Part shown: in pieces, positions 24,359-51,017 of the stretch
Layout: every line of letters starts with the position of its first letter
Numbering within the stretch: the first letter of the stretch is position 1
DNA from: Eggerthellaceae bacterium
Lineage (GTDB): Bacteria > Actinomycetota > Coriobacteriia > Coriobacteriales > Eggerthellaceae
Direction of reading: 5' to 3'
Length of the DNA stretch: 64,000 nucleotides
NCBI GenBank assembly: GCA_051878795.1
Contig: JBJEKU010000010.1
Location: forward strand, 13,231 to 77,230
Notes under the pieces: model-generated
Told to the model about the DNA's origin: nothing
Seen by the model: only the letters and a program-made list of their open reading frames with translations
Databases searched by the model: none
Translations under genes and position numbers: made by a program

Positions 24359-25687
24359 ATGGGCCTCATTAAAGCGATTACCGGTGCCACAGGCGGCGTT
24401 CTTGCCGACCAGTGGAAGGAAATGATCTACTGCGACGCTATCCCCGCAGATACTCTGATGGTGAAGGGCCAGAAGCGCGTTTCCGGCCGCAGCAGCAATA
24501 CCAAGGCGTCCGATAATATCATCACAAATGGATCCGCGATCGTGGTCAACGACGGTCAGGCGATGATCATCGTCGACCAGGGCAAGGTCGTCGAGTTCTG
24601 CGCGGAGCCCGGCCAGTTCACCTACAACAGCTCTTCCGAGCCCTCTATCTTCACCGGTGACCTGGAACAGGGCATCAGGGATTCCATCGCGCGTGTGGGC
24701 GAGCGATTCGGCTTCGGCGGCGATACCGGCCACGACCAGCGCGTGTATTACTTCAACATCAAGGAAATCGTCGACAACAAGTACGGCACCCCCACTCCCG
24801 TGCCCTTCCGTGTCATCGACAGGAACATCGGTCTGGATGTGGATATTTCGGTGCGCTGCAACGGCGTGTACTCCTACAAGATCGTCGACCCCGTGCTGTT
24901 CTACACCGAGCTGTGCGGAAACGTATCCGATCGCTATATGCGCAGCGAAATCGAAGGCCAGATGAAGTCCGAGCTGCTCACGGCGCTGCAGCCCGCTTTC
25001 GCCGTGGTATCCGCGGCTGGCGTGCGCTATAGCGAGATTCCCGCTCACACCATCGAGCTGTGCGATGCGCTCAACGATGTCCTTTCCGAGAAGTGGACCC
25101 GCCTGCGCGGCATCAAGATTGTCAGCTTCGGCGTGAATTCCATCGCGGCGAGCGAAGAAGATCAGCAGATGATCAAGGACCTGCAGAAGAGCGCTACCAT
25201 GCGCGACCCCAGGATGGCGGCAGCGGTGCTGACCGGCGCCCAGGCAGACGCGATGCGCACTGCGGCAGCCAACGAAGGTGGCGCCATGACCGGTTTCATG
25301 GGCATGGGTATGGCGGCCGGAGCTGTTGGTAACCAGGCTGCGAACCTGTATGCCATGGGCGAACAGTCCGTTCCCGCCCCGGTTGCGGCTTCTGCTCCCG
25401 CGCCTGCGCCTGCTGCGGGTGGTTGGACTTGCGAGTGCGGAAGGGTTTGCACCGGCAAGTTCTGCCAGGAATGCGGCAAGCCCAAGCCCGAGCCTGCCGG
25501 CTGGACCTGTGCATGCGGTACTGCGTGCACCGGCAAGTTCTGCCCGGAATGCGGTTCTCCCAAGCCCGTTGCGGCGCGTCGGTACAAGTGCAGCAACTGC
25601 GGATGGATTCCCGAGGATCCTGCGAACCCGCCTAAGTTCTGCCCCCAGTGCGGCGACCGTTTCGACGAAGGGGATGCGGTAAGCTAG
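24359..25687 (+). CDS. SPFH/band-7 domain protein with C-terminal zinc ribbons (COG4260/YdjI-like)
   Basis: Start at MGLIKAITGATGG after GGAAGGAG, then an SPFH core. The C-terminus has GWTCECG..CTGKFCQECG, GWTCACG..CTGKFCPECG and YKCSNCG...FCPQCG. Confidence 0.85.
   Translation: MGLIKAITGATGGVLADQWKEMIYCDAIPADTLMVKGQKRVSGRSSNTKASDNIITNGSAIVVNDGQAMIIVDQGKVVEFCAEPGQFTYNSSSEPSIFTGDLEQGIRDSIARVGERFGFGGDTGHDQRVYYFNIKEIVDNKYGTPTPVPFRVIDRNIGLDVDISVRCNGVYSYKIVDPVLFYTELCGNVSDRYMRSEIEGQMKSELLTALQPAFAVVSAAGVRYSEIPAHTIELCDALNDVLSEKWTRLRGIKIVSFGVNSIAASEEDQQMIKDLQKSATMRDPRMAAAVLTGAQADAMRTAAANEGGAMTGFMGMGMAAGAVGNQAANLYAMGEQSVPAPVAASAPAPAPAAGGWTCECGRVCTGKFCQECGKPKPEPAGWTCACGTACTGKFCPECGSPKPVAARRYKCSNCGWIPEDPANPPKFCPQCGDRFDEGDAVS
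25421..25576 (+). repeat. Intragenic tandem duplication (2 x 78 nt) encoding the zinc-ribbon unit
   Basis: Unit 1 (25421-25498) and unit 2 (25499-25576) align codon for codon (GGTTGGACTTGCGAGTGCGG... versus GGCTGGACCTGTGCATGCGG...; both contain TGCACCGGCAAGTTCTGCC). Confidence 0.8.
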
Positions 25688-25726: not shown

Positions 25727-25761
25727 CGACCCGGGATTGTTCCCGGGCCGTTTTGTTGTTT
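25727..25761 (+). terminator. Rho-independent terminator after the SPFH gene
   Basis: CGACCCGGGA-TTGT-TCCCGGGCCG hairpin (one mismatch) followed by TTTTGTTGTTT. Confidence 0.6.
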
Positions 25762-25803
25762 GGGACGATGATGATGGGCTGAAAGCTTCGATGTGGATTG
25801 GAA

Positions 25804-27030
25804 TCAGTAATTCAGTCCAAAAGCCCAAAGGGGTATCACGTTTTCGCATCCGTATTCGATGCCGTCTCTGATCACATAGCCGTTTTCGATATCCCTAATC
25901 TGCGCTTGCCCCTTTCCAGGGCCGCCAACCTCGAATGTGCATTTTCCGATTGTGAAGTCCGATGCTTTCGATGCGGTGACTAGATGGTTCACTCTCATTT
26001 GGTTGAAGAAGAAGGTTTCCCTGACGGTGCCTGCGCTGCAGTTCTCGCATAGATTGAACAGAATGTTGGGATTGTCAAGGAACACCTTCTCGGGTTTCCC
26101 CAATGCGCCTAGTCCGCTGGCTCCTGTTCGCAAAAGGGCGATCATCCCAGCCTTCTCCATGTATACAAGGTAGTCTTCGACGCTATTCCTACTGATTTGG
26201 ATTTGCTTTGCCAGATTGCTGATGTTCGGTTTGAAGGGCACGAGTTCGCTGATCACAACCATTAGTTTGAGCAATTTGCGTCCAGTAGACATGTTCATTT
26301 GGGCGTATGATGGGATGTCCTGTTCGAGGGTTCGGGTGATAACCTGCCTCAGTTTCATTGCGAAATCCGGATCTGCTCCAAATGGGTAATAACCCGATTG
26401 AAGGTATTCCTCGAAAAGAGGGAGCGGGTGGTCGACTTCCGGGATGGAAACTTTGTTTTCGAGAATCTGATCAAGCGTCAGGATCGGTGCGTCGATGTCG
26501 TAACGAATCTTGAGAAACTCACGGAAGGAGAGGCCTTGCATGAGGTATCGGGGGGCGCGACGGGATAGGTCTGCTTCGCCTTTTTCGATATCGAGAACCG
26601 ACGAGCCGGTGAAGTAGACGTGCATGTTGGGATATGCGTCATAGATATTCTTCAGTTCACGGGACCATTGCGGGTATTTATGCACCTCATCGATGAAAAG
26701 ATATCTTCCGCCATGCTTATAGAATGCATCGGCTGCATCCACAAGCGTATGCGTAGTGAAGAACAGGTGGTCTGCTGTTACATAGAGCGCTTCGCCTTTG
26801 CTGTGGGTGTCGCGGATCCGTTGCAGGAAGAGCGTCGTTTTTCCGACACCGCGCGGACCGACTAATGCGAGCATTCGGTTGTTCCAGTCGATACGATTGT
26901 ATTGGTACCGCTTGAAATCGAATCTCATATGTGCGAGTTGGTTTTCCATGTATTCGTAAAGTGATTCCATAGCTACCTGTTTCTTCGGGGTATCGAGTGA
27001 AATGCTGTCGACACGAGCTGATAGATCCAT
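25804..27030 (-). CDS. AAA+ ATPase of the AAA_14 + DUF4143 (COG1373) family
   Basis: Walker A GPRGVGKTT, Walker B YLFIDEVHKY, and a C-terminal DUF4143-like tail (SDFTIGKCTFEVGGPGKG). The start is uncertain: ATG 27030 (MDLSAR), ATG 26970 (MESLYEY, which I slightly prefer), or the track start at 27102. Confidence 0.8.
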   Translation of the reverse strand: MDLSARVDSISLDTPKKQVAMESLYEYMENQLAHMRFDFKRYQYNRIDWNNRMLALVGPRGVGKTTLFLQRIRDTHSKGEALYVTADHLFFTTHTLVDAADAFYKHGGRYLFIDEVHKYPQWSRELKNIYDAYPNMHVYFTGSSVLDIEKGEADLSRRAPRYLMQGLSFREFLKIRYDIDAPILTLDQILENKVSIPEVDHPLPLFEEYLQSGYYPFGADPDFAMKLRQVITRTLEQDIPSYAQMNMSTGRKLLKLMVVISELVPFKPNISNLAKQIQISRNSVEDYLVYMEKAGMIALLRTGASGLGALGKPEKVFLDNPNILFNLCENCSAGTVRETFFFNQMRVNHLVTASKASDFTIGKCTFEVGGPGKGQAQIRDIENGYVIRDGIEYGCENVIPLWAFGLNY

Positions 27031-27032
27031 TA

Positions 27033-27115
27033 TTGCACTATAATAGTGCAATAATTCTATAAAATTGCTCACAAATAGAGCAATAAATGGCAAAAAATGC
27101 ACAATAATAGTGCAA
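27033..27115. promoter_or_regulatory. Array of three phased 19-bp inverted repeats (putative operators) containing -10-like ATAATA spacers
   Basis: TTGCAC-TATAATA-GTGCAA (27033-27051), TTGCTC-ACAAATA-GAGCAA (27065-27083) and ATGCAC-AATAATA-GTGCAA (27097-27115). Their centres are exactly 32 bp apart. Confidence 0.55.
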
Positions 27116-27372
27116 AACAGTAACGATGAACTCTCTTTTGGAAGATCACCGAGTAAGTCTGAAGGTCGGGGATGCTTCTCCAGTAAGCCCTCTTTTGCCT
27201 ATCGGTCATCTTTCTCAAAGTGTTTGATTTACGTTAGGGAAGCGCAATCGATGGGCTTCCCAAGGGAATTTCTCCTTGTATGAGGGTGGTTTTTCTTGGT
27301 GATTCCTTTATCGATCATACTGTTTGACGGGGCGAGTTCTGCTGTCCTTGCTTGAAGTCTGATTACCATGAG

Positions 27373-28848
27373 ATGGGAGCCAAAGTGTCGAACAGTGTGG
27401 ATTCTGGATATCAATTCGTTGACCTCTCATCTGCAGAGGCTATTGAAAAACATGCGGAGAAGCTTCAGGGGATGACCTTTCGCGAGGTAATTGATTTGGG
27501 AATCGTTCCTGAAGGAGTGTCTCGCGAATACAACAGTAAGCGCTATAAGGGCGGGATGGGAACCTTGATTGAGGAGCGCTTCTTTGGTTACAAGGCGAAT
27601 AGCGTTCAAGGGCCTGACTTCGAGGAAGCTGGCGTGGAACTGAAAGTGAGCTGCTTCGACGTCAAGAAAGATGGTGGCATTGCGGCAGGCGAACGTTTGG
27701 TTCTGACCATGATTCCGTTCGATAGCCCTATTGAGGATGACTTCTATGAGTCTCACGTATGGGAGAAGAGTGCGAATATCATGCTCGTGTATTACGAACG
27801 TAATCGAGACATCGACTCTTACGACCAGGTTATCAGGTATACATCGTTATTCACTCCGCCTGCGGAAGACTTGAAGATCATTGAAGACGATTACAAGAAA
27901 ATCGTTCGGCTCATTCAAGAAGGTCACGCTGAAGAACTCTCTGAGAGTATGACCACGTATCTTGGTGCGTGTACGAAGGGGTCAACTGCTGCGACCATGT
28001 GGGTCGATCAATTCTATCCTCCTCATTCCAAAGCAAAGAAGCGAGCCTTCTGTTTTAAGCGGCAGTATATGGATTTCGTCCTCCATCACTACATCATGAA
28101 GGAAGCCAGCGACTCGGAAGCGATTCTGTCAAGTGCCGAAGAGCTATCCGAGATGTCCTTTGAAGAATTGGTTCTTTCGAAGATCGACTCTTACGTGGGA
28201 AAGAGCGACCGAGAGCTTTCCCATGAACTTGGAATAACTTATTCGGGTAACAAGGCGCAGTGGACGAGGATTACTTTTGCCATGCTTGGCTTGAAAGGGA
28301 ATAAGGCGGAAGAGTTCGAGAAGGCGAACATCTCTGTTCGTACGGTTCGCGAAGAGGAATCCGGAAGGATACGTGAGTCGCTTTCCCTGAACACGATAAG
28401 CTTTTTGGATTTGGTGGATGAAGAATGGGAAGAGGCTCCACTTCACGAATACTTTGAGGAAACAAGATTCTTGTTCGTCGTTTTCAGAAAGCAAGGAGGT
28501 GAGTATGTCCTTTCTGGCGCACGATTCTGGTCGATGCCTCAAGAGCATATCGATGGGCCTCTGCGCGATTGCTGGCAGAGAACCCAGAACATTGTAAGGA
28601 CCGGGGTCGAACTTGCCGTGGTTCCTTTCGGTGATTCCGACCGCGTTGAGAACAATCTTCCAAAGAAGAGCGACAATCCCGTTGCTCACGTGCGACCGCA
28701 TACGTCGAAGGCTTGGTATCGCTTCGAGGACGGCTCAACGAGGGGCCACTCTCCCCAATTCGGGGATGAGCTTCCTGATGGACGTGAAATGACCAAGCAG
28801 AGCTTCTGGCTGAACAACGACTACATTCACTCGATTATCAGCTCGTAG
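27373..28848 (+). CDS. Type II restriction endonuclease, Sau3AI/MutH family (probably GATC-specific)
   Basis: Similarity to my recollection of Sau3AI runs along the whole length: GVELKVSCF...GERLVLTMI, EGHAEELSESMTTYLGACTKGS, KAKKRAFCFK, EETRFLFVVF, FWSMPQEHIDGPL, HVRPHT, MTKQSFWLNNDYI. The start is uncertain (TTG 27352, ATG 27373 or GTG 27385). Confidence 0.85.
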   Translation: MGAKVSNSVDSGYQFVDLSSAEAIEKHAEKLQGMTFREVIDLGIVPEGVSREYNSKRYKGGMGTLIEERFFGYKANSVQGPDFEEAGVELKVSCFDVKKDGGIAAGERLVLTMIPFDSPIEDDFYESHVWEKSANIMLVYYERNRDIDSYDQVIRYTSLFTPPAEDLKIIEDDYKKIVRLIQEGHAEELSESMTTYLGACTKGSTAATMWVDQFYPPHSKAKKRAFCFKRQYMDFVLHHYIMKEASDSEAILSSAEELSEMSFEELVLSKIDSYVGKSDRELSHELGITYSGNKAQWTRITFAMLGLKGNKAEEFEKANISVRTVREEESGRIRESLSLNTISFLDLVDEEWEEAPLHEYFEETRFLFVVFRKQGGEYVLSGARFWSMPQEHIDGPLRDCWQRTQNIVRTGVELAVVPFGDSDRVENNLPKKSDNPVAHVRPHTSKAWYRFEDGSTRGHSPQFGDELPDGREMTKQSFWLNNDYIHSIISS

Positions 28849-28950
28849 TGAAGAGTCCCTCCATTGGGACGATGGATATCGATCTTTCGGACTTCGATCG
28901 GATACAATGCACAGAGGAAAAGTGGAGCACACAGCAGCGATTGGAGAAAC

Positions 28951-30216
28951 GTGAGCTCAAAAATCAAGGTTGCCGAGCTTTTTGCCGGCGTTGGCGGTTT
29001 TCGCCTTGGATTAGAAGGATATTCGAACCCTGGTCATCCCGAATTCGAAATGGAGCCCGCTGGGCCGTTCCAGACGGTCTGGGCGAATCAGTGGGAGCCT
29101 CCTGGAACAGAAAGACGCCAGTTTGCGGCGCGTTGCTATAAGGAGCGCTTTGGCGAGAAAGAGCTCGTGGTCGAGGATATCAACAAGGTGCTTGACCAGT
29201 ACGAAGCGGGGGAAATCGACATTCCCGATGTTGACATGGTTGTCGGTGGCTTTCCCTGTCAGGATTATTCGGTAGCGAAATCCCTCTCAAACGCTCGCGG
29301 CATCGAAGGCAAGAAGGGTGTTCTTTGGTGGGATATCGAACGCTTCCTTGCCTTGAAGCAGCCTCGTTTTGTTCTTCTGGAAAATGTGGACCGATTACTG
29401 AAGAGTCCTGCTTCGCAAAGAGGTCGTGATTTTGCGATTATGCTTTCTTGCCTGTGCAATCTTGGATATGCGGTTGAGTGGCATGTGGTGAACAGTGCTG
29501 AGTATGGCTTCAGTCAGCGCCGAAAGCGTGTATATATCTATGCGGAGCGTACTGAGGAGAAATGGAATCTGAAGGAGAGGATAGATTACGGGGTGCTTGC
29601 AAGAGCGCTTCCCATCGAATCTCCTTCGCAGACAACGCTCTTCGGTATTTCGAAAGACCCCTATGAGGTTTCACAGCATTTTGGCGAAGGCTTGAAGAAA
29701 TCGCCTTTCGAAACCGGGGGAGTATGCCAGAACCATGAGGTTGTCACCTATCAGGTTGTGGAGAGGTACGGCGGTAAGCGAATGACCCTAGGTGATGTCC
29801 TTGTCAGCGAGATGGAAGTACCGGGTTCATTCTATATTTCAGAAGATCAGCTTGAGAAATGGGAATACCTAAAAGGCGGTAAGCGAGAAAAAAGGGTCAA
29901 CAAGAAGACAGGTTATGAGTATTACTACTCAGAGGGGTCTATGGCTTTTCCCGATGCAACCGATAAGCCGTCCCGAACTATATTAACAGGGGAGGGGGGT
30001 TCTGGTCCTTCGCGCTTCAAACATGTGATCAAAACGGAAAACGGCAGATATCGCAGGCTTGTGCCTGATGAGTTGGACCAGTTGCAAGGTTTCCCCAAGG
30101 GTTGGACGAATACCGGCATGACTGATGGGAATCGTGCTTTCTGCATGGGCAATGCGCTGGTAGTGGGAGTGCCCCATTTAATCGGATGCGAGATTGCAAA
30201 GCAGCTGCGGGGGTAG
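28951..30216 (+). CDS. DNA (cytosine-5)-methyltransferase
   Basis: Motif I FAGVGGF, motif IV GGFPCQDYS, motif VI ENV, motif VIII QRRKRVYIY, motif X GNALVVGV. I chose GTG 28951, 4 nt after GGAG. The track start TTG 28864 is the alternative. Confidence 0.9.
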   Translation: MSSKIKVAELFAGVGGFRLGLEGYSNPGHPEFEMEPAGPFQTVWANQWEPPGTERRQFAARCYKERFGEKELVVEDINKVLDQYEAGEIDIPDVDMVVGGFPCQDYSVAKSLSNARGIEGKKGVLWWDIERFLALKQPRFVLLENVDRLLKSPASQRGRDFAIMLSCLCNLGYAVEWHVVNSAEYGFSQRRKRVYIYAERTEEKWNLKERIDYGVLARALPIESPSQTTLFGISKDPYEVSQHFGEGLKKSPFETGGVCQNHEVVTYQVVERYGGKRMTLGDVLVSEMEVPGSFYISEDQLEKWEYLKGGKREKRVNKKTGYEYYYSEGSMAFPDATDKPSRTILTGEGGSGPSRFKHVIKTENGRYRRLVPDELDQLQGFPKGWTNTGMTDGNRAFCMGNALVVGVPHLIGCEIAKQLRG

Positions 30217-30351
30217 CACCATCAATCAGCAATGCAGTTTAGCCTCCATACATGGTGAAAAACGTATATGGTCTATTGAAGCCGGTAATGCAGGTTCTAT
30301 TCAATAAGTTCAGGAGGTCTACGGAATCAGGGAAAGGAATAGGAGGGTGAG

Positions 30352-30957
30352 ATGGATGCTTTTGAAAAAGGAAGTAACCCAAGAGCGGAAGATGAGAATG
30401 GGCTTCCTCAGCCTCAAGAATACGATAAGCCTCTTGTTACGGCCTTTGATTATTATTCCGATGAGTACTCTGAGGCTGCAACGCTTGATGAAGCAATAGA
30501 AATGAGGGGCTTCAAGGCGATGCTCGAAGATGTAGTCCCGGGAGATTTCGATAATCCTTCGACTGATATGGAGAAGCGTGGGGTTGTTGAACTCTGGGCG
30601 GATTATCTCTGGAAGGTATCCGATACTCGCGATGTCGATGGAGAGCGGCTTGCGGATAGCGTTAATGAGGGAGACTGGCTGAAGGTTGATATTGATGACA
30701 CCGAAGAGTATGGACCAGATTTCCTGTTTTCCACTTTGGACGATAAGCGCCTTCCGTTTTCTGCCTACCGTGATTACGACGACAGATTCCTATGCAAGGA
30801 GTTCGAAAAGCTTGAGGGTGGGCAGAGGCTGATACTTCGAGTTCGGGAGAAGATATGCTTTGGTGGGACTTGCGCGCCTCATGATCCGGATACGAATTGG
30901 CATATTTACACATGCAAAGCCGACGTATACAGAATCTCAGAGAAATCTGAAGGGTAA
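30352..30957 (+). CDS. Hypothetical, strongly acidic 201-aa protein
   Basis: Strong RBS AGGAGGGTGAG before the ATG, and the same AT-rich codon style as the R-M genes. By hand count there are about 49 D/E against about 24 K/R. No family recognised. Confidence 0.6.
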   Translation: MDAFEKGSNPRAEDENGLPQPQEYDKPLVTAFDYYSDEYSEAATLDEAIEMRGFKAMLEDVVPGDFDNPSTDMEKRGVVELWADYLWKVSDTRDVDGERLADSVNEGDWLKVDIDDTEEYGPDFLFSTLDDKRLPFSAYRDYDDRFLCKEFEKLEGGQRLILRVREKICFGGTCAPHDPDTNWHIYTCKADVYRISEKSEG

Positions 30958-31010
30958 TTTGAATTTTCCCTGACGTTTCGAGCGCTGGAAAATGACAGCT
31001 TTTGTTAATG

Positions 31011-31047
31011 AATCAAAAGCAGGGGCCCGGAATGACCGGACCCCTGC
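31011..31047 (-). terminator. Rho-independent terminator of the UPF0210 gene (minus strand)
   Basis: GCAGGGGCCCGG / CCGGACCCCTGC hairpin. On the minus strand it is followed by TTTTGATT. Confidence 0.6.
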
Positions 31048-31074
31048 TGTGCTGTTTGCGGTATGGGAATATTG

Positions 31075-32439: not shown

Positions 32440-32945
32440 GGCATATCCCTTTCAAGAGAACGGGAGGGCGTACCCTCCGCAGTTGCGTTTGTAAAGACTG
32501 ACGTTTCATTATAGCCGCCATTTGCGCGAACGCGGTGTTCGCTTGCGTGCCTTGGGGAACAAGGGGCCCGCATCCGCAGCGTGCGGACCCTACGGTTCTT
32601 TCCCGCTCTTTTCCAGGATCCCCTTCCTTCCTACGGAGATGGTTTGTTCGAAATGCCCTCCAAGGCAGGTTTTCCCCAAGAAACGGGCTCATTCGCTCAT
32701 TTTCCGACAGGAAAAAGCTCTTGTATGGCGCCCGATATGCCCATGATTCGAGGTTCCGATTGCCGAATTAATCGTACAAAGCCCCGAAACTGTTGGGTTT
32801 CACGGTAGTTTTTTCTTCAAAACGCTTTCAAAGGCGGAGGTCTTTTGTGAATGAAACCTTAAAAATCCCTGAAATAGCCTAAAATGTAAGGGTTGCTTTT
32901 TCGTCTTCCGTGCGAGGAAGGCCTAAAAACGAGAGAAAGATTGAT

Positions 32946-39609: not shown

Positions 39610-39743
39610 ATGCGCTCCTTGCAATGCGATTGTGCAACTTCACAATGGTACCGCAAGACAAACGGTGCTTGGGCAACGGAATGGATACGCGCTCGTCGGT
39701 GCGGCTATAATCGTGGCGGGTTCGGGAAAGGAACGGAGGCTGC

Positions 39744-49898: not shown

Positions 49899-49990
49899 TT
49901 CCGTACTCTCTGCCGAAAAGACAAATCGGCAACGGAATGGTTTCGATTTGTCGTGAAAAGTGGCATTTCCCAAACGATACCTGCTTTTTG

Positions 49991-50018
49991 TTGCGCTAAT
50001 TGACAATGGTGGTATAAT
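49991..50018 (+). promoter_or_regulatory. Putative sigma-70-type promoter for veg
   Basis: TTGCGC, then 16 nt, then TATAAT (50013-50018) in an AT-rich patch. A TTGACA is also present at 50000-50005, but it is too close to the -10 element. Confidence 0.4.
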
Positions 50019-50043
50019 CAATAGTTGCGTTTTCTGTATTAAT

Positions 50044-50397
50044 TTGGCAACTAGAAAGCAGTGGCAAGAATTGGATCTCGAAAAGCAGGCAAACATCGTC
50101 GGCAACATTCGCGAAACGCTGAATGGGCTTGTCGGCCAGCGTCTGTCCATTCGCGCCAACATGGGTCGTTCCAAGGTAATCGAATCCGAAGGAATCCTCA
50201 TGCAGGTTCATCCTCAGCTCTTCATCGTCGAGGTTGAACGCAGGCGTGGCAGGAAGACGCGTCAATCGTACCAGTATGTCGATATTCTCACCGGAACCGT
50301 GGAGCTGAGCAGGCATGGCGAGCCGGTATTCGGAGATTTCATCGAGGATGATTCTTCCGAAGATTCCCAGACCCCCCAAGCTTCCTTGGACTTCTAA
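50044..50397 (+). CDS. veg: Veg-family protein with an acidic C-terminal extension
   Basis: IRETLNGLVGQRLSIRANMGRSKVIESEGILMQVHPQLFIVEV...SYQYVDILTGTVEL aligns with my recollection of B. subtilis Veg. Only TTG (50044, 50071) or an upstream GTG (49960) is available, so the start is uncertain. Confidence 0.75.
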   Translation: MATRKQWQELDLEKQANIVGNIRETLNGLVGQRLSIRANMGRSKVIESEGILMQVHPQLFIVEVERRRGRKTRQSYQYVDILTGTVELSRHGEPVFGDFIEDDSSEDSQTPQASLDF

Positions 50398-50458
50398 AGC
50401 GAATCGCTGGAAAATATAAGCCGTCTCCGAGCAGCTTTTATTTTTCGCTCGGGCGCGG

Positions 50459-50487
50459 TTGACATTTTACGTTTGTGGGAGCACAAT
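50459..50487 (+). promoter_or_regulatory. Putative promoter of tRNA-Ala
   Basis: TTGACA (50459-50464), then 17 nt, then CACAAT (50482-50487), about 14 nt before the mature tRNA 5' end. Confidence 0.45.
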
Positions 50488-50501
50488 ATCTTCTGCTTCT
50501 T

Positions 50502-50577
50502 GGGGCATTAGCTCAGCTGGGAGAGCGCGGCGTTCGCAATGCCGAGGCCAGGGGTTCGATCCCCCTATGCTCCACCA
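50502..50577 (+). tRNA. tRNA-Ala (anticodon CGC), CCA encoded
   Basis: I folded the cloverleaf by hand. Acceptor GGGGCAT/ATGCTCC includes the G3:U70 Ala identity pair. D-arm GCTC-AGCTGGGA-GAGC, anticodon loop TTCGCAA, T-arm AGGGG-TTCGATC-CCCCT, 3' ACCA. Confidence 0.95.
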
Positions 50578-50586
50578 AGAACTCTC

Positions 50587-50613
50587 AGCGGCAAGTTATT
50601 CTTGCCGCTTTTT
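50587..50613 (+). terminator. Rho-independent terminator after tRNA-Ala
   Basis: AGCGGCAAG-TTATT-CTTGCCGCT followed by TTTTT. Confidence 0.8.
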
Positions 50614-50639
50614 GTTGTACCCAGGGAAAGGATCTAGAC

Positions 50640-51017
50640 ATGAGCGAGCAATTGGTTCTGACCTTCGGCGTTGGAGGCTATTGCAAGGGCAATCAGACCG
50701 TGAAGACCTATCAGCTGGAAGATGGCAGCTATCGCAGCGTCTGCACGCGCATCTACAGCAGCTTCCTCGGTTCCGAAACCGAAGAGGTTGCCATCGACCT
50801 GGAGAAGGAAATCGTTCAGGAATTCTTCGATGCCGCGCAGCAGCTGGGCGTATTCGAATGGGAGCCCAAGTACTATGCCAAGTGCCTCGACGGCCAGGAT
50901 TGGGAGCTTGAGATCGACCACCCCGAATACCCCAAGGTCAAATGCCGTGGCTTGAGCGCGCATCCCTCTGCTTTCTACGAATTGATGGATCTGCTCGCGC
51001 CCTTGGGTTTGAAATAG
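50640..51017 (+). CDS. Hypothetical protein (125 aa)
   Basis: ATG 50640 after GGGAAAGGA. Codon usage looks like the host. The track ORF 50475..51017 runs through the tRNA and cannot be the real start. No family recognised. Confidence 0.55.
   Translation: MSEQLVLTFGVGGYCKGNQTVKTYQLEDGSYRSVCTRIYSSFLGSETEEVAIDLEKEIVQEFFDAAQQLGVFEWEPKYYAKCLDGQDWELEIDHPEYPKVKCRGLSAHPSAFYELMDLLAPLGLK

Follow-up and report, generated by a model that had tools for sequence, protein, structure and literature searches.

The intergenic site that is framed by the convergent genes of SPFH and UPF0210 (DUF711), located in a 64,000-nt stretch of DNA from a bacterium of an uncultured Eggerthellaceae lineage (GenBank assembly GCA_051878795.1, contig JBJEKU010000010.1, positions 13,231 to 77,230), to which we refer in its full length as the window, is probably a variable defence hotspot, whose lower-GC DNA would have arrived in at least two separate events and whose pieces would work independently of each other. 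The site carries the genes of a Sau3AI-like restriction endonuclease (REase), a C5 cytosine DNA methyltransferase (MTase), an ATPase and a strongly acidic protein of 201 residues, the latter termed the orphan in the following. These can be separated into three parts, a restriction-modification (R-M) pair of the Sau3AI family, a PDC-S01-type ATPase cassette that is accompanied by its own array of palindromes, and a member of a family of acidic proteins.

A preliminary description of the window had proposed that the arrangement of a divergent ATPase, an operator array, the REase, the MTase and the orphan would be fixed, and that it may constitute a composite defence module with ATPase and orphan acting as partners or regulators of the R-M pair. 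The proposed system of four genes resolves into components that are known, and its headline claim is to be dropped. Instead, the series of alleles described here documents the assembly and erosion of a defence hotspot in the absence of mobility genes, in a family of gut actinobacteria that has received little study. It also provides two leads, which concern a conserved phased array as apparent auto-operator of PDC-S01-type ATPases, a group that is common yet of candidate status only, and a compact, confidently foldable and uniformly acidic protein family without known relatives that recurs in defence neighbourhoods.

Alleles at the SPFH–UPF0210 site

Among related Eggerthellaceae contigs and the window, the site was found in four states, where many of the related sequences (labelled L with a number) are short metagenomic contigs and the open reading frames (ORFs) of fetched loci are greedy longest-ORF calls. 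The site is empty in a Coriobacteriaceae metagenome-assembled genome (MAG) of 89–94% identity (L009), where a 217-nt spacer replaces 5.2 kb, thus providing the vacant counterpart in close relatives that was anticipated in the preliminary description. A metagenome contig (L094) contains a remnant of the MTase gene comprising its last 61 codons followed by the orphan. The common state consists of REase, MTase and orphan without the ATPase (L001 and L137–L146; 24 contigs were read for one member of the MTase cluster, and ten distinct places among them are shown), whereas the window contains all four genes and is the only allele read with an ATPase, although a Logan contig that encodes a protein of the same 90% cluster may carry it too. 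All four states can be derived from each other by deletion and a single cassette gain, and none of the alleles seen holds alternative defence cargo.

The boundaries of the respective segments are defined by the alignments. On its left side, homology of the window to L009, L001 and L137 extends to position 25767. The breakpoints of the ATPase indel are found at 25767|27141 in comparison to L137–L146 and at 25754|27141 in comparison to L001, and the indel spans the region from the stop codon of the ATPase to just past the palindrome array. In place of the cassette, the relatives contain 133–217 nt with one or two 'relic' palindromes. The homology to L009 restarts at 31011, and the ancestral spacer that L009 shares with the window parts two indels of different distribution (Table 1). 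The module composed of the R-M pair and the orphan is complete in the window, in L001 and in L137–L146.

These observations bear directly on the idea that the four genes form one composite system, in which ATPase and acidic protein would regulate or partner the Sau3AI-type pair via shared divergent operators. The genes are adjacent, uniformly low in GC and arranged divergently around the palindromes. Still, such a system is hardly to be expected in light of an ATPase that is missing in all related alleles with R-M pair and orphan, of an ancestral spacer that parts the two indels, of ATPases that stand alone with their array in other places, and of distant orphan homologues that are never found with either a Sau3AI-type enzyme or this ATPase. 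The co-occurrence that would be expected of four collaborating genes is therefore lacking for the ATPase, whereas for the orphan it is lacking in part, since this gene is linked to the R-M pair within the species group and found without it in L094 and in distant contexts.

The history of the module can be traced in the phylogeny of the flanking genes, which defines three deep lineages consisting of the window, of L001, and of L137, L094 and L009, with a gene-dependent identity of 87–95% between lineages. The R-M and orphan module is found in all three of them with a synonymous divergence (dS) of 0.39 in the REase and 0.51 in the MTase, which resembles that of the flanks (0.30–0.60). The module is accordingly an old one that was passed on vertically. 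L009 and L094, which hold the empty and the partial allele, group among carriers and are 95–99.8% identical to the carrier L137. Their states are most simply explained as secondary losses, and the module would now be lost by deletion in some strains. L009 and L137 share 99.8% identity in a gene 1.6 kb away from the site and 96–98% in the two genes that border it, a drop that hints at recombination around the hotspot. Gain and loss would most likely have proceeded by homologous recombination within the conserved flanking regions combined with simple deletion, which would also account for the missing integrase, tRNA and repeats described below.

The foreign character of the DNA is reflected in its composition. 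The segment 25768–31010 has a GC content of 48.7% compared to 60.5% in the remainder of the window. In 500-nt steps, values range from 0.43 to 0.53 across 25750–30999 and from 0.58 to 0.66 in both flanks, and all 1-kb windows with a GC fraction below 0.52 start at 25751–30251, making this the sole such dip in 64 kb. The same trend is found at third codon positions (GC3), with values of 0.57 for the ATPase, 0.57 for the REase, 0.54 for the MTase and 0.47 for the orphan compared to 0.76 for SPFH, 0.84 for UPF0210 and, on average, 0.71 for the background. The change in sequence character between the two terminators, which the preliminary description had judged by eye, is thus borne out in both GC and GC3, while its reference to very AT-rich intergenic DNA was overstated, as the spacers of the island contain 42–49% GC, which is below the level of the host.

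In agreement with the same description, we found no mobility genes. Neither an ORF nor a Pfam match for an integrase or transposase was identified in the island, its flanks contain short chance-level but no convincing direct repeats, and the single tRNA of the window is located at 50502, 19 kb away. Nothing convincing was found at the borders of the ATPase and R-M indels with respect to target-site duplication or microhomology, and searches of plasmid and phage records with the island DNA revealed no similarity. From the properties of mobile elements and genomic islands, deviant composition and presence/absence polymorphism are thus found, and integrase, tRNA or attachment site and direct repeats are not. 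It is consequently very unlikely that the whole island is a decayed prophage, integrative and conjugative element or plasmid insertion that was stripped of its mobility genes, as might be suspected from the foreign composition and the defence cargo. Besides the absence of attachment-like repeats, of a tRNA and of plasmid or phage similarity, which extends to the orphan protein, the orphan and the REase have no relatives in IMG/VR and the two indels differ in their distribution. The island is compositionally foreign, lower-GC DNA that carries defence-type genes without mobility genes.

The concept of defence hotspots describes defence islands that reside between core genes. The site in the window resembles such chromosomal hotspots in its fixed position between conserved genes, its foreign GC content, its defence genes, the missing integrase and the close relatives with another cargo state or none, and it differs by its restriction to four states without alternative defence cargo.

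Table 1. Features of the SPFH–UPF0210 site, with positions referring to the window
Feature	Position	Strand	Description	Basis
SPFH gene terminator	25730..25761	+	Left edge of the variable site; stem-loop CCCGGGATTGTTCCCGGG (hairpin 25730-25747), then T-run	
ATPase cassette	25768..27140	-	1.37 kb; coding sequence, 5' leader, putative promoter/operator array with three palindromes	BLAST breakpoints, alignments
ATPase	25804..26970	-	AAA_14/DUF4143-type, 388 aa, MGN0261399.1 'ATP-binding protein'	Pfam, PADLOC
Three palindromes	27033-27051, 27065-27083, 27097-27115	.	TTGCAC-N7-GTGCAA type	32-nt phasing
Ancestral spacer	27141..27181	.	Common to window and empty allele L009; parts two indels	Alignment, junction comparison
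R-M and orphan module	27182..30995	+	About 3.8 kb, edges approximate to about 20 nt	Missing in L009, truncated in L094
REase	27373..28848	+	Sau3AI-family type II, 491 aa from ATG (ORF opens with TTG at 27352)	NCBIfam, PADLOC, PDB
MTase	28951..30216	+	C5 cytosine DNA methyltransferase, 421 aa, GTG start behind GGAG, MGN0261401.1	Pfam, TIGRFAM, PADLOC
Acidic orphan	30352..30957	+	201 aa, MGN0261402.1 'hypothetical protein'	GGAGG 7 nt before ATG
UPF0210 gene terminator	31018..31048	-	Right edge of the variable site; 13-bp stem with 10 GC pairs, T-run	

The ATPase cassette and its phased palindromes

The ATPase contains a clear AAA_14 domain (PF13173, 98.3 bits at a cut-off of 27), whereas its match to DUF4143 (PF13635) remains with 19.4 bits below the cut-off of 28.1. 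Hence, from the AAA_14/DUF4143 assignment of the preliminary description, the first half is firmly established and the second is retained as a sub-threshold similarity. Six PADLOC models of PDC-S01 match the protein with a best E-value of 1.8e-24. Its start was placed at M45 of the ORF based on a protein of 100% identity in NCBI, originating from an Eggerthellaceae MAG. The Walker A (GPRGVGKT) and Walker B (IDEVH) motifs are both invariant in homologues, as are D338, E347 and K353 near the C-terminus and a stretch of the sequence SRNxxExYLxYxEKAG, whose appearance resembles a winged helix-turn-helix.

PDC-S01, associated with COG1373, is a candidate system consisting of a single gene that encodes an ATPase combined with a PD-(D/E)XK domain, which was found by 'guilt by embedding' and is not validated (PMC12988326). 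The fusion of both domains is described in PMC12988326 and PMC3424549, and in a recent survey, PDC-S01 takes fourth place in frequency among the defence systems of prokaryotes (PMC12988326). The ATPase of the window shares with this group the AAA_14 domain, the matches to its profiles, the single-gene layout, the defence neighbourhood and a patchy distribution across phyla, as reflected in its 65% identity to a Bacteroidales protein. It differs in its DUF4143 region scoring below the Pfam cut-off and in the upstream array of two to four palindromes phased by 32 nt, of which there is no mention in the few papers found.

Homologues with 53–80% identity are abundant, with more than 8000 candidates and among them proteins from Bacteroidales with 65% identity, and their genomic contexts underline the autonomy of the cassette. 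ATPases of 65–79% identity are encoded by solo genes in five other distinct contexts without R-M genes. These genes are positioned between those of a GTPase and an NS-type endonuclease (L115), after the gene of a B12-binding protein with small unannotated ORFs on both sides (L116), between an NS-type endonuclease and a HAD hydrolase (L118–L127) and between threonine dehydratase and ilvD (L128–L132), and plasmids of Bacteroidota or putative viral contigs carry further homologues. In none of the contexts read does an R-M system adjoin an ATPase homologue. To judge from these neighbourhoods, the ATPase cassette is a self-contained single-gene unit that is separate from the R-M pair.

As a separate observation, a gene with an Endonuclea_NS_2 domain is found close to ATPase homologues in two loci, downstream on the same strand in L115 (7791-8921) and divergent upstream in L118 (3542-4804), a proximity that may be coincidental, given the relatedness of the genomes, or reflect a weak association.

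The phased operator-like array noted in the preliminary description proved to be a genuine feature of the sequence. It contains the palindromes TTGCACTATAATAGTGCAA (27033), TTGCTCACAAATAGAGCAA (27065) and ATGCACAATAATAGTGCAA (27097), with a TAGAAT box resembling a -10 element placed between the two that are proximal to the ATPase. Two exact copies of TGCAC-N7-GTGCA were observed compared to 0.10 expected, and none of 100 shuffles contained two. An Rfam search of the palindromes identified no family and a chance match to a miRNA only. Equivalent arrays consisting of two to four palindromes with a spacing of 32–33 nt are located just upstream of the ATPase starts in L115 (5883-5965), L116 (5910-5958), L118–127 (L118:4899-5011), L128–132 (L128:4933-4981) and L134–136 (L134:4865-4914), and every ATPase homologue examined, at 53–80% identity and in unrelated loci, is preceded by phased palindromes. 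Within 1.95 Mb of fetched DNA, phased pairs were exclusively found upstream of the starts of ATPase homologues or at the hotspot. The half-sites co-vary between ATPase loci (TGCAC/GTGCA, CGCAC/GTGCG, TGCTC/GAGCA) while the phasing is kept, and in loci of the Coriobacteriia type, a -10-like box of the sequence TGCTATAAT, TGCTAAAAT or TAGAAT resides between the proximal two sites.

Since the same array precedes solo ATPases in loci without R-M genes, it belongs to the ATPase rather than to a shared R-M control region, and the phased palindromes look like a family-wide auto-operator of PDC-S01-type ATPases. The gene would thus bring its own promoter, embedded in the three palindromes, one of which is predicted to overlap with the -35 box and another with the transcription start. 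From the co-varying half-sites, the maintained phasing and the invariant SRNxxExYLxYxEKAG stretch, we infer autoregulation, where the ATPase would bind the palindromes via its winged-helix region and repress its own transcription. The array might at first be compared to the C-boxes of R-M systems with controller proteins, with which it shares the location of palindromic operators upstream of an R-M operon. The difference lies in the assignment of the palindromes to the ATPase unit and in their presence in L009, which is devoid of R-M genes; also, the region 27116-27372 contains no ORF for a helix-turn-helix controller.

Arrays without an ATPase were found at the hotspot in L009 (4241-4291), L094 (9584-9634), L001 (1068-1086) and L137 (5072-5122). 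These relics contain one or two palindromes of the TTGCACTGTGACAGAGCAA type, which are 32 nt apart. The simplest reading is that they are left over from an earlier ATPase cassette after deletion of its ORF, which fits the decay of their -10 box. More generally, they may be what is left of a promoter, a binding site that acts in trans or a docking site.

In case of the last, the phased palindromes would serve as recombination or landing sites at which single-gene AAA_14/DUF4143 cassettes move in and out, possibly by means of their own PD-(D/E)XK domain, and the arrays in alleles without ATPase (L009, L094, L001 and L137–L146) would be empty docking sites. Such a role would accord with a cassette that ends just past the array on its right and at the stop codon on its left edge, with the window array being strongly unlike the relic arrays despite flanks of 87–93% identity, with the array of L001 being short by exactly one 32-nt unit and with all five array substitutions between L094 and L137 missing the palindrome arms (estimated chance of about 0.04). 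We nevertheless regard it as improbable, as there is neither a recombinase nor a target-site duplication, the pattern is confined to a single hotspot and the plain deletion of an ORF that leaves a promoter with a decaying -10 box accounts for the data.

A lone palindrome (TGCAATGCGATTGTGCA) with one mismatch to the operator consensus was found in the window (39620-39636) and in L094 (19191-19209). It is conserved in both, and located inside an ORF distant from any ATPase gene.

The Sau3AI-type pair and the acidic protein

The assignment of a Sau3AI-like endonuclease and a C5 methyltransferase in the preliminary description has withstood closer inspection. The REase matches the NCBIfam equivalog NF040973 with 513.6 bits (cut-off 300) over profile positions 3–474 of 475, the PADLOC model REase_II with an E-value of 2e-101 and PF02976 with 105.6 bits. 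Its residues 56–487 align to both domains of the Sau3AI structure (PDB 4pxg, E 7e-67), including PDFEEAGVELKV, and its MutH-like N-terminal domain has retained the catalytic D...E-L-K. Differences in REase length between L137 and L141 were considered as mutation and rejected, since they result from the start choice of the gene caller. The MTase, whose exact 421-residue sequence is present in NCBI, scores 196.2 bits with PF00145 (cut-off 22), 213 bits with TIGR00675 (cut-off 100.65) and an E-value of 2e-158 with the PADLOC model MTase_II PDLC03329, and it contains motifs I, IV, VI, VIII and X (FAGVGG, GGFPCQ, LLENV, SQRRKR, MGNALV). By all features of its sequence, the pair is a standard and intact system of the Sau3AI family, whose GATC specificity is predicted from family membership. 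The REase would thus cleave GATC where it is unmethylated, and host GATC would be shielded by the C5 methylase. An avoidance of GATC as sign of a long residence of the R-M pair was not seen outside of the island, where the ratio of observed to expected sites is 1.44.

With Sau3AI from Staphylococcus aureus 3A, the window pair shares the MutH-like N-terminal and the C-terminal domain of the REase and a C5 cytosine methylase that follows on the same strand. It is distinguished by its host, an Eggerthellaceae (Actinomycetota) MAG, and by a third co-linear gene after the methylase, which encodes the orphan. We know of no gene of this kind in the well-studied Sau3AI system.

The orphan has an isoelectric point (pI) of 4.28 and a net charge of -25, and it matches no entry in Pfam, NCBIfam, PADLOC or PHROGs, in line with the preliminary description of an acidic protein of no recognisable family. 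This character is shared by its relatives, as the pI of 17 family members ranges from 4.07 to 4.94 and their net charge from -12 to -40. Close relatives are limited to three clusters at 90% identity, which are 78–87% identical to the window protein and all located after this MTase. An exhaustive HMMER search detected 49 representative homologues with E-values of up to 1e-3, of which 25 reach 1e-10 or below, and the family is found almost exclusively on Coriobacteriia-like contigs. The family is characterized by the motifs GLPxP, MRG, PEDF, AELW, PYHDYD and DPDFxWRVY, and it includes two kinds of fusions, whose N-terminal domains (about 380 and about 450 residues) are unknown and for which Pfam (searched with P0004, P0007, P0020 and P0039) provided only a sub-threshold match to the ATP-grasp family R2K_3. 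In the window orphan, the His of PYHDYD is replaced by Arg (codons 138–139, 30763-30768), while this His is kept by most members, including the three closest clusters.

The protein sequence of the orphan changes 3–7 times faster than those of REase, MTase and flanks, and its ratio of nonsynonymous to synonymous substitutions (dN/dS) is 0.15–0.36 compared to 0.00–0.08 for the latter, which identifies it as a real gene under purifying selection. An AlphaFold2 (AF2) model predicts with confidence a mixed alpha/beta protein with long strands (predicted local distance difference test, pLDDT, of 87; predicted template modelling score, pTM, of 0.81), which has no match among the folds of PDB and BFVD at E<=0.001. 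The best Foldseek match is the uncharacterized protein lp_0118 (3k2y, E 3e-3, TMq 0.35). A relationship of 3k2y to the YbjQ fold, considered as YbjQ genes are located near two orphan homologues, was checked and rejected. The orphan protein has no match in phages or plasmids.

The surroundings of more distant homologues were investigated in about 11 independent contexts, obtained from 21 metagenomic loci and looked-up contigs with a GC content of 47–69%. In about 8 of these, other defence or candidate-defence genes are found within a few kb. These include GmrSD/HEC-06 (L100, L104-106, L108, L113), GmrSD_N together with HEPN and an LlaJI R-M system (L092), SLFN-type helicases (L107, L110, L111), PDC-S53 (L095), PDC-S11 and PDC-S60 (L103), PDC-S20 and a type IIG-like enzyme (L101) and PDC-M09B directly upstream of a fusion protein (L102), whereas no obvious defence neighbour was found in L089–L091. 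Neither a Sau3AI-type REase nor an ATPase of the window type is located near a distant homologue in the contexts read. Consequently, the orphan is best described from its sequence neighbourhoods as what appears to be a hitch-hiking member of an undescribed family, embedded in defence neighbourhoods without fixed partner.

Two of these neighbourhoods contain arrangements of their own. In L102 (4554-8587), a 582-residue fusion with an orphan domain directly follows a PDC-M09B-like gene and a gene of 223 codons without PADLOC match, a cluster that may constitute a multi-gene conflict system with an orphan domain. In five loci from gut metagenomes, the homologue is directly preceded by the gene of a multi-zinc-ribbon protein of about 145–165 residues (L103:9528-9965; L104:9471-9968; L105:3099-3596; L106:1207-1704; L108:3198-3659), at a distance of 18 nt in four of the five, which may be a conserved operon partner of the orphan in that clade only. 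Downstream of the homologue, a convergent GmrSD gene is located in L105 and L106. In L104 it is shorter and lies at a greater distance, in L108 it is broken into fragments, and in L103 none was found.

With respect to its function, the acidic protein is probably neither a partner of the ATPase nor an obligate R-M subunit. Our working guess is that it would act as a stand-alone or accessory conflict protein, and its charge and neighbourhood might point to a negatively charged mimic of nucleic acids or a modulator of nucleases. In small size, strong and conserved negative charge and proximity to DNA nucleases it resembles ArdA and Ocr, acidic anti-restriction proteins that mimic DNA. It differs by the absence of sequence, profile or fold similarity in Pfam, PHROGs and PDB and by its location on the chromosome instead of a phage or plasmid, so that the resemblance is one of charge alone. 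A tentative extension of these considerations would view the protein as founding a new and largely Coriobacteriia-confined family of conflict systems, which travels with varied DNA-targeting nucleases (Sau3AI, LlaJI R-M, GmrSD, PDC-S11/DUF4268, SLFN-type helicase) and acts either as defence gene itself or as charged modulator in the sense of a 'safety catch'. The docking-site role of the palindromes is less likely than this proposal.

It is conceivable, though unlikely, that the acidic protein is instead a true accessory of the R-M pair in a three-gene unit to which the ATPase is unrelated. In such a unit it could be a DNA mimic that serves as 'safety catch' on the REase during establishment or a lapse of methylation, or a factor in specificity or regulation. 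The order of REase, MTase and orphan is shared by three lineages with differences in about 10–13% of their nucleotides, all three genes are missing together in L009, no terminator is predicted between MTase and orphan, and the strongly acidic protein has relatives beside other DNA nucleases (GmrSD, LlaJI, PDC-S11/DUF4268). Against a three-gene unit speak the orphan of L094, which is intact after deletion of the R-M genes, the family members without a nearby nuclease in L089–L091, the Sau3AI system, which is not known to include such a third gene, and the lack of sequence and fold similarity to known mimics.

The interpretation of the site as a hotspot with independently working pieces is weakened by several observations. 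The orphan adjoins the MTase in every R-M-bearing contig of the species group (about 20 fetched), and a functional link between both may thus exist within this group. Between the orphan of L094 and that of a contig with the MTase, the identity amounts to 99.5%, which makes the orphan-only state very recent and no proof of independence. At the L009 junction, 24 nt match neither border and the junction is therefore compatible with a deletion as well as with an imported empty allele. The palindromes that are kept in alleles without ATPase are not accounted for by the simple logic of an own operator, and those of the window are located between ATPase and REase and could also affect transcription of the R-M genes. 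The C-terminal half of the ATPase is unreliable in its AF2 model (pLDDT <50). Finally, both the approximately 6 distinct contexts of the ATPase and the approximately 11 of the orphan include many short metagenomic contigs with crude ORF calls.

Further features in the vicinity of the site

The 3' end of the SPFH gene (25421-25654) encodes three tandem modules resembling zinc ribbons (GWTCxCG...GKFCxECG), which are reflected in DNA repeats with spacings of 78 and 99 nt and 79–90% identity.

On the other side of the site, the GC content decreases to about 50% at 32440-32909, in the intergenic region between UPF0210 and the gene of a 1540-residue BcrAD/HGD-D fusion. Its part 32528-32817 has no BLAST counterpart in L137–L146 or L009, whose spacer is shorter and unrelated, and the region may thus be a second small variable site beside the hotspot. 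The only other mild dip within the window is found at 49960-50911, where two short ORFs with a GC fraction of 0.50–0.54 are located around the tRNA Ala-CGC (50502-50577).

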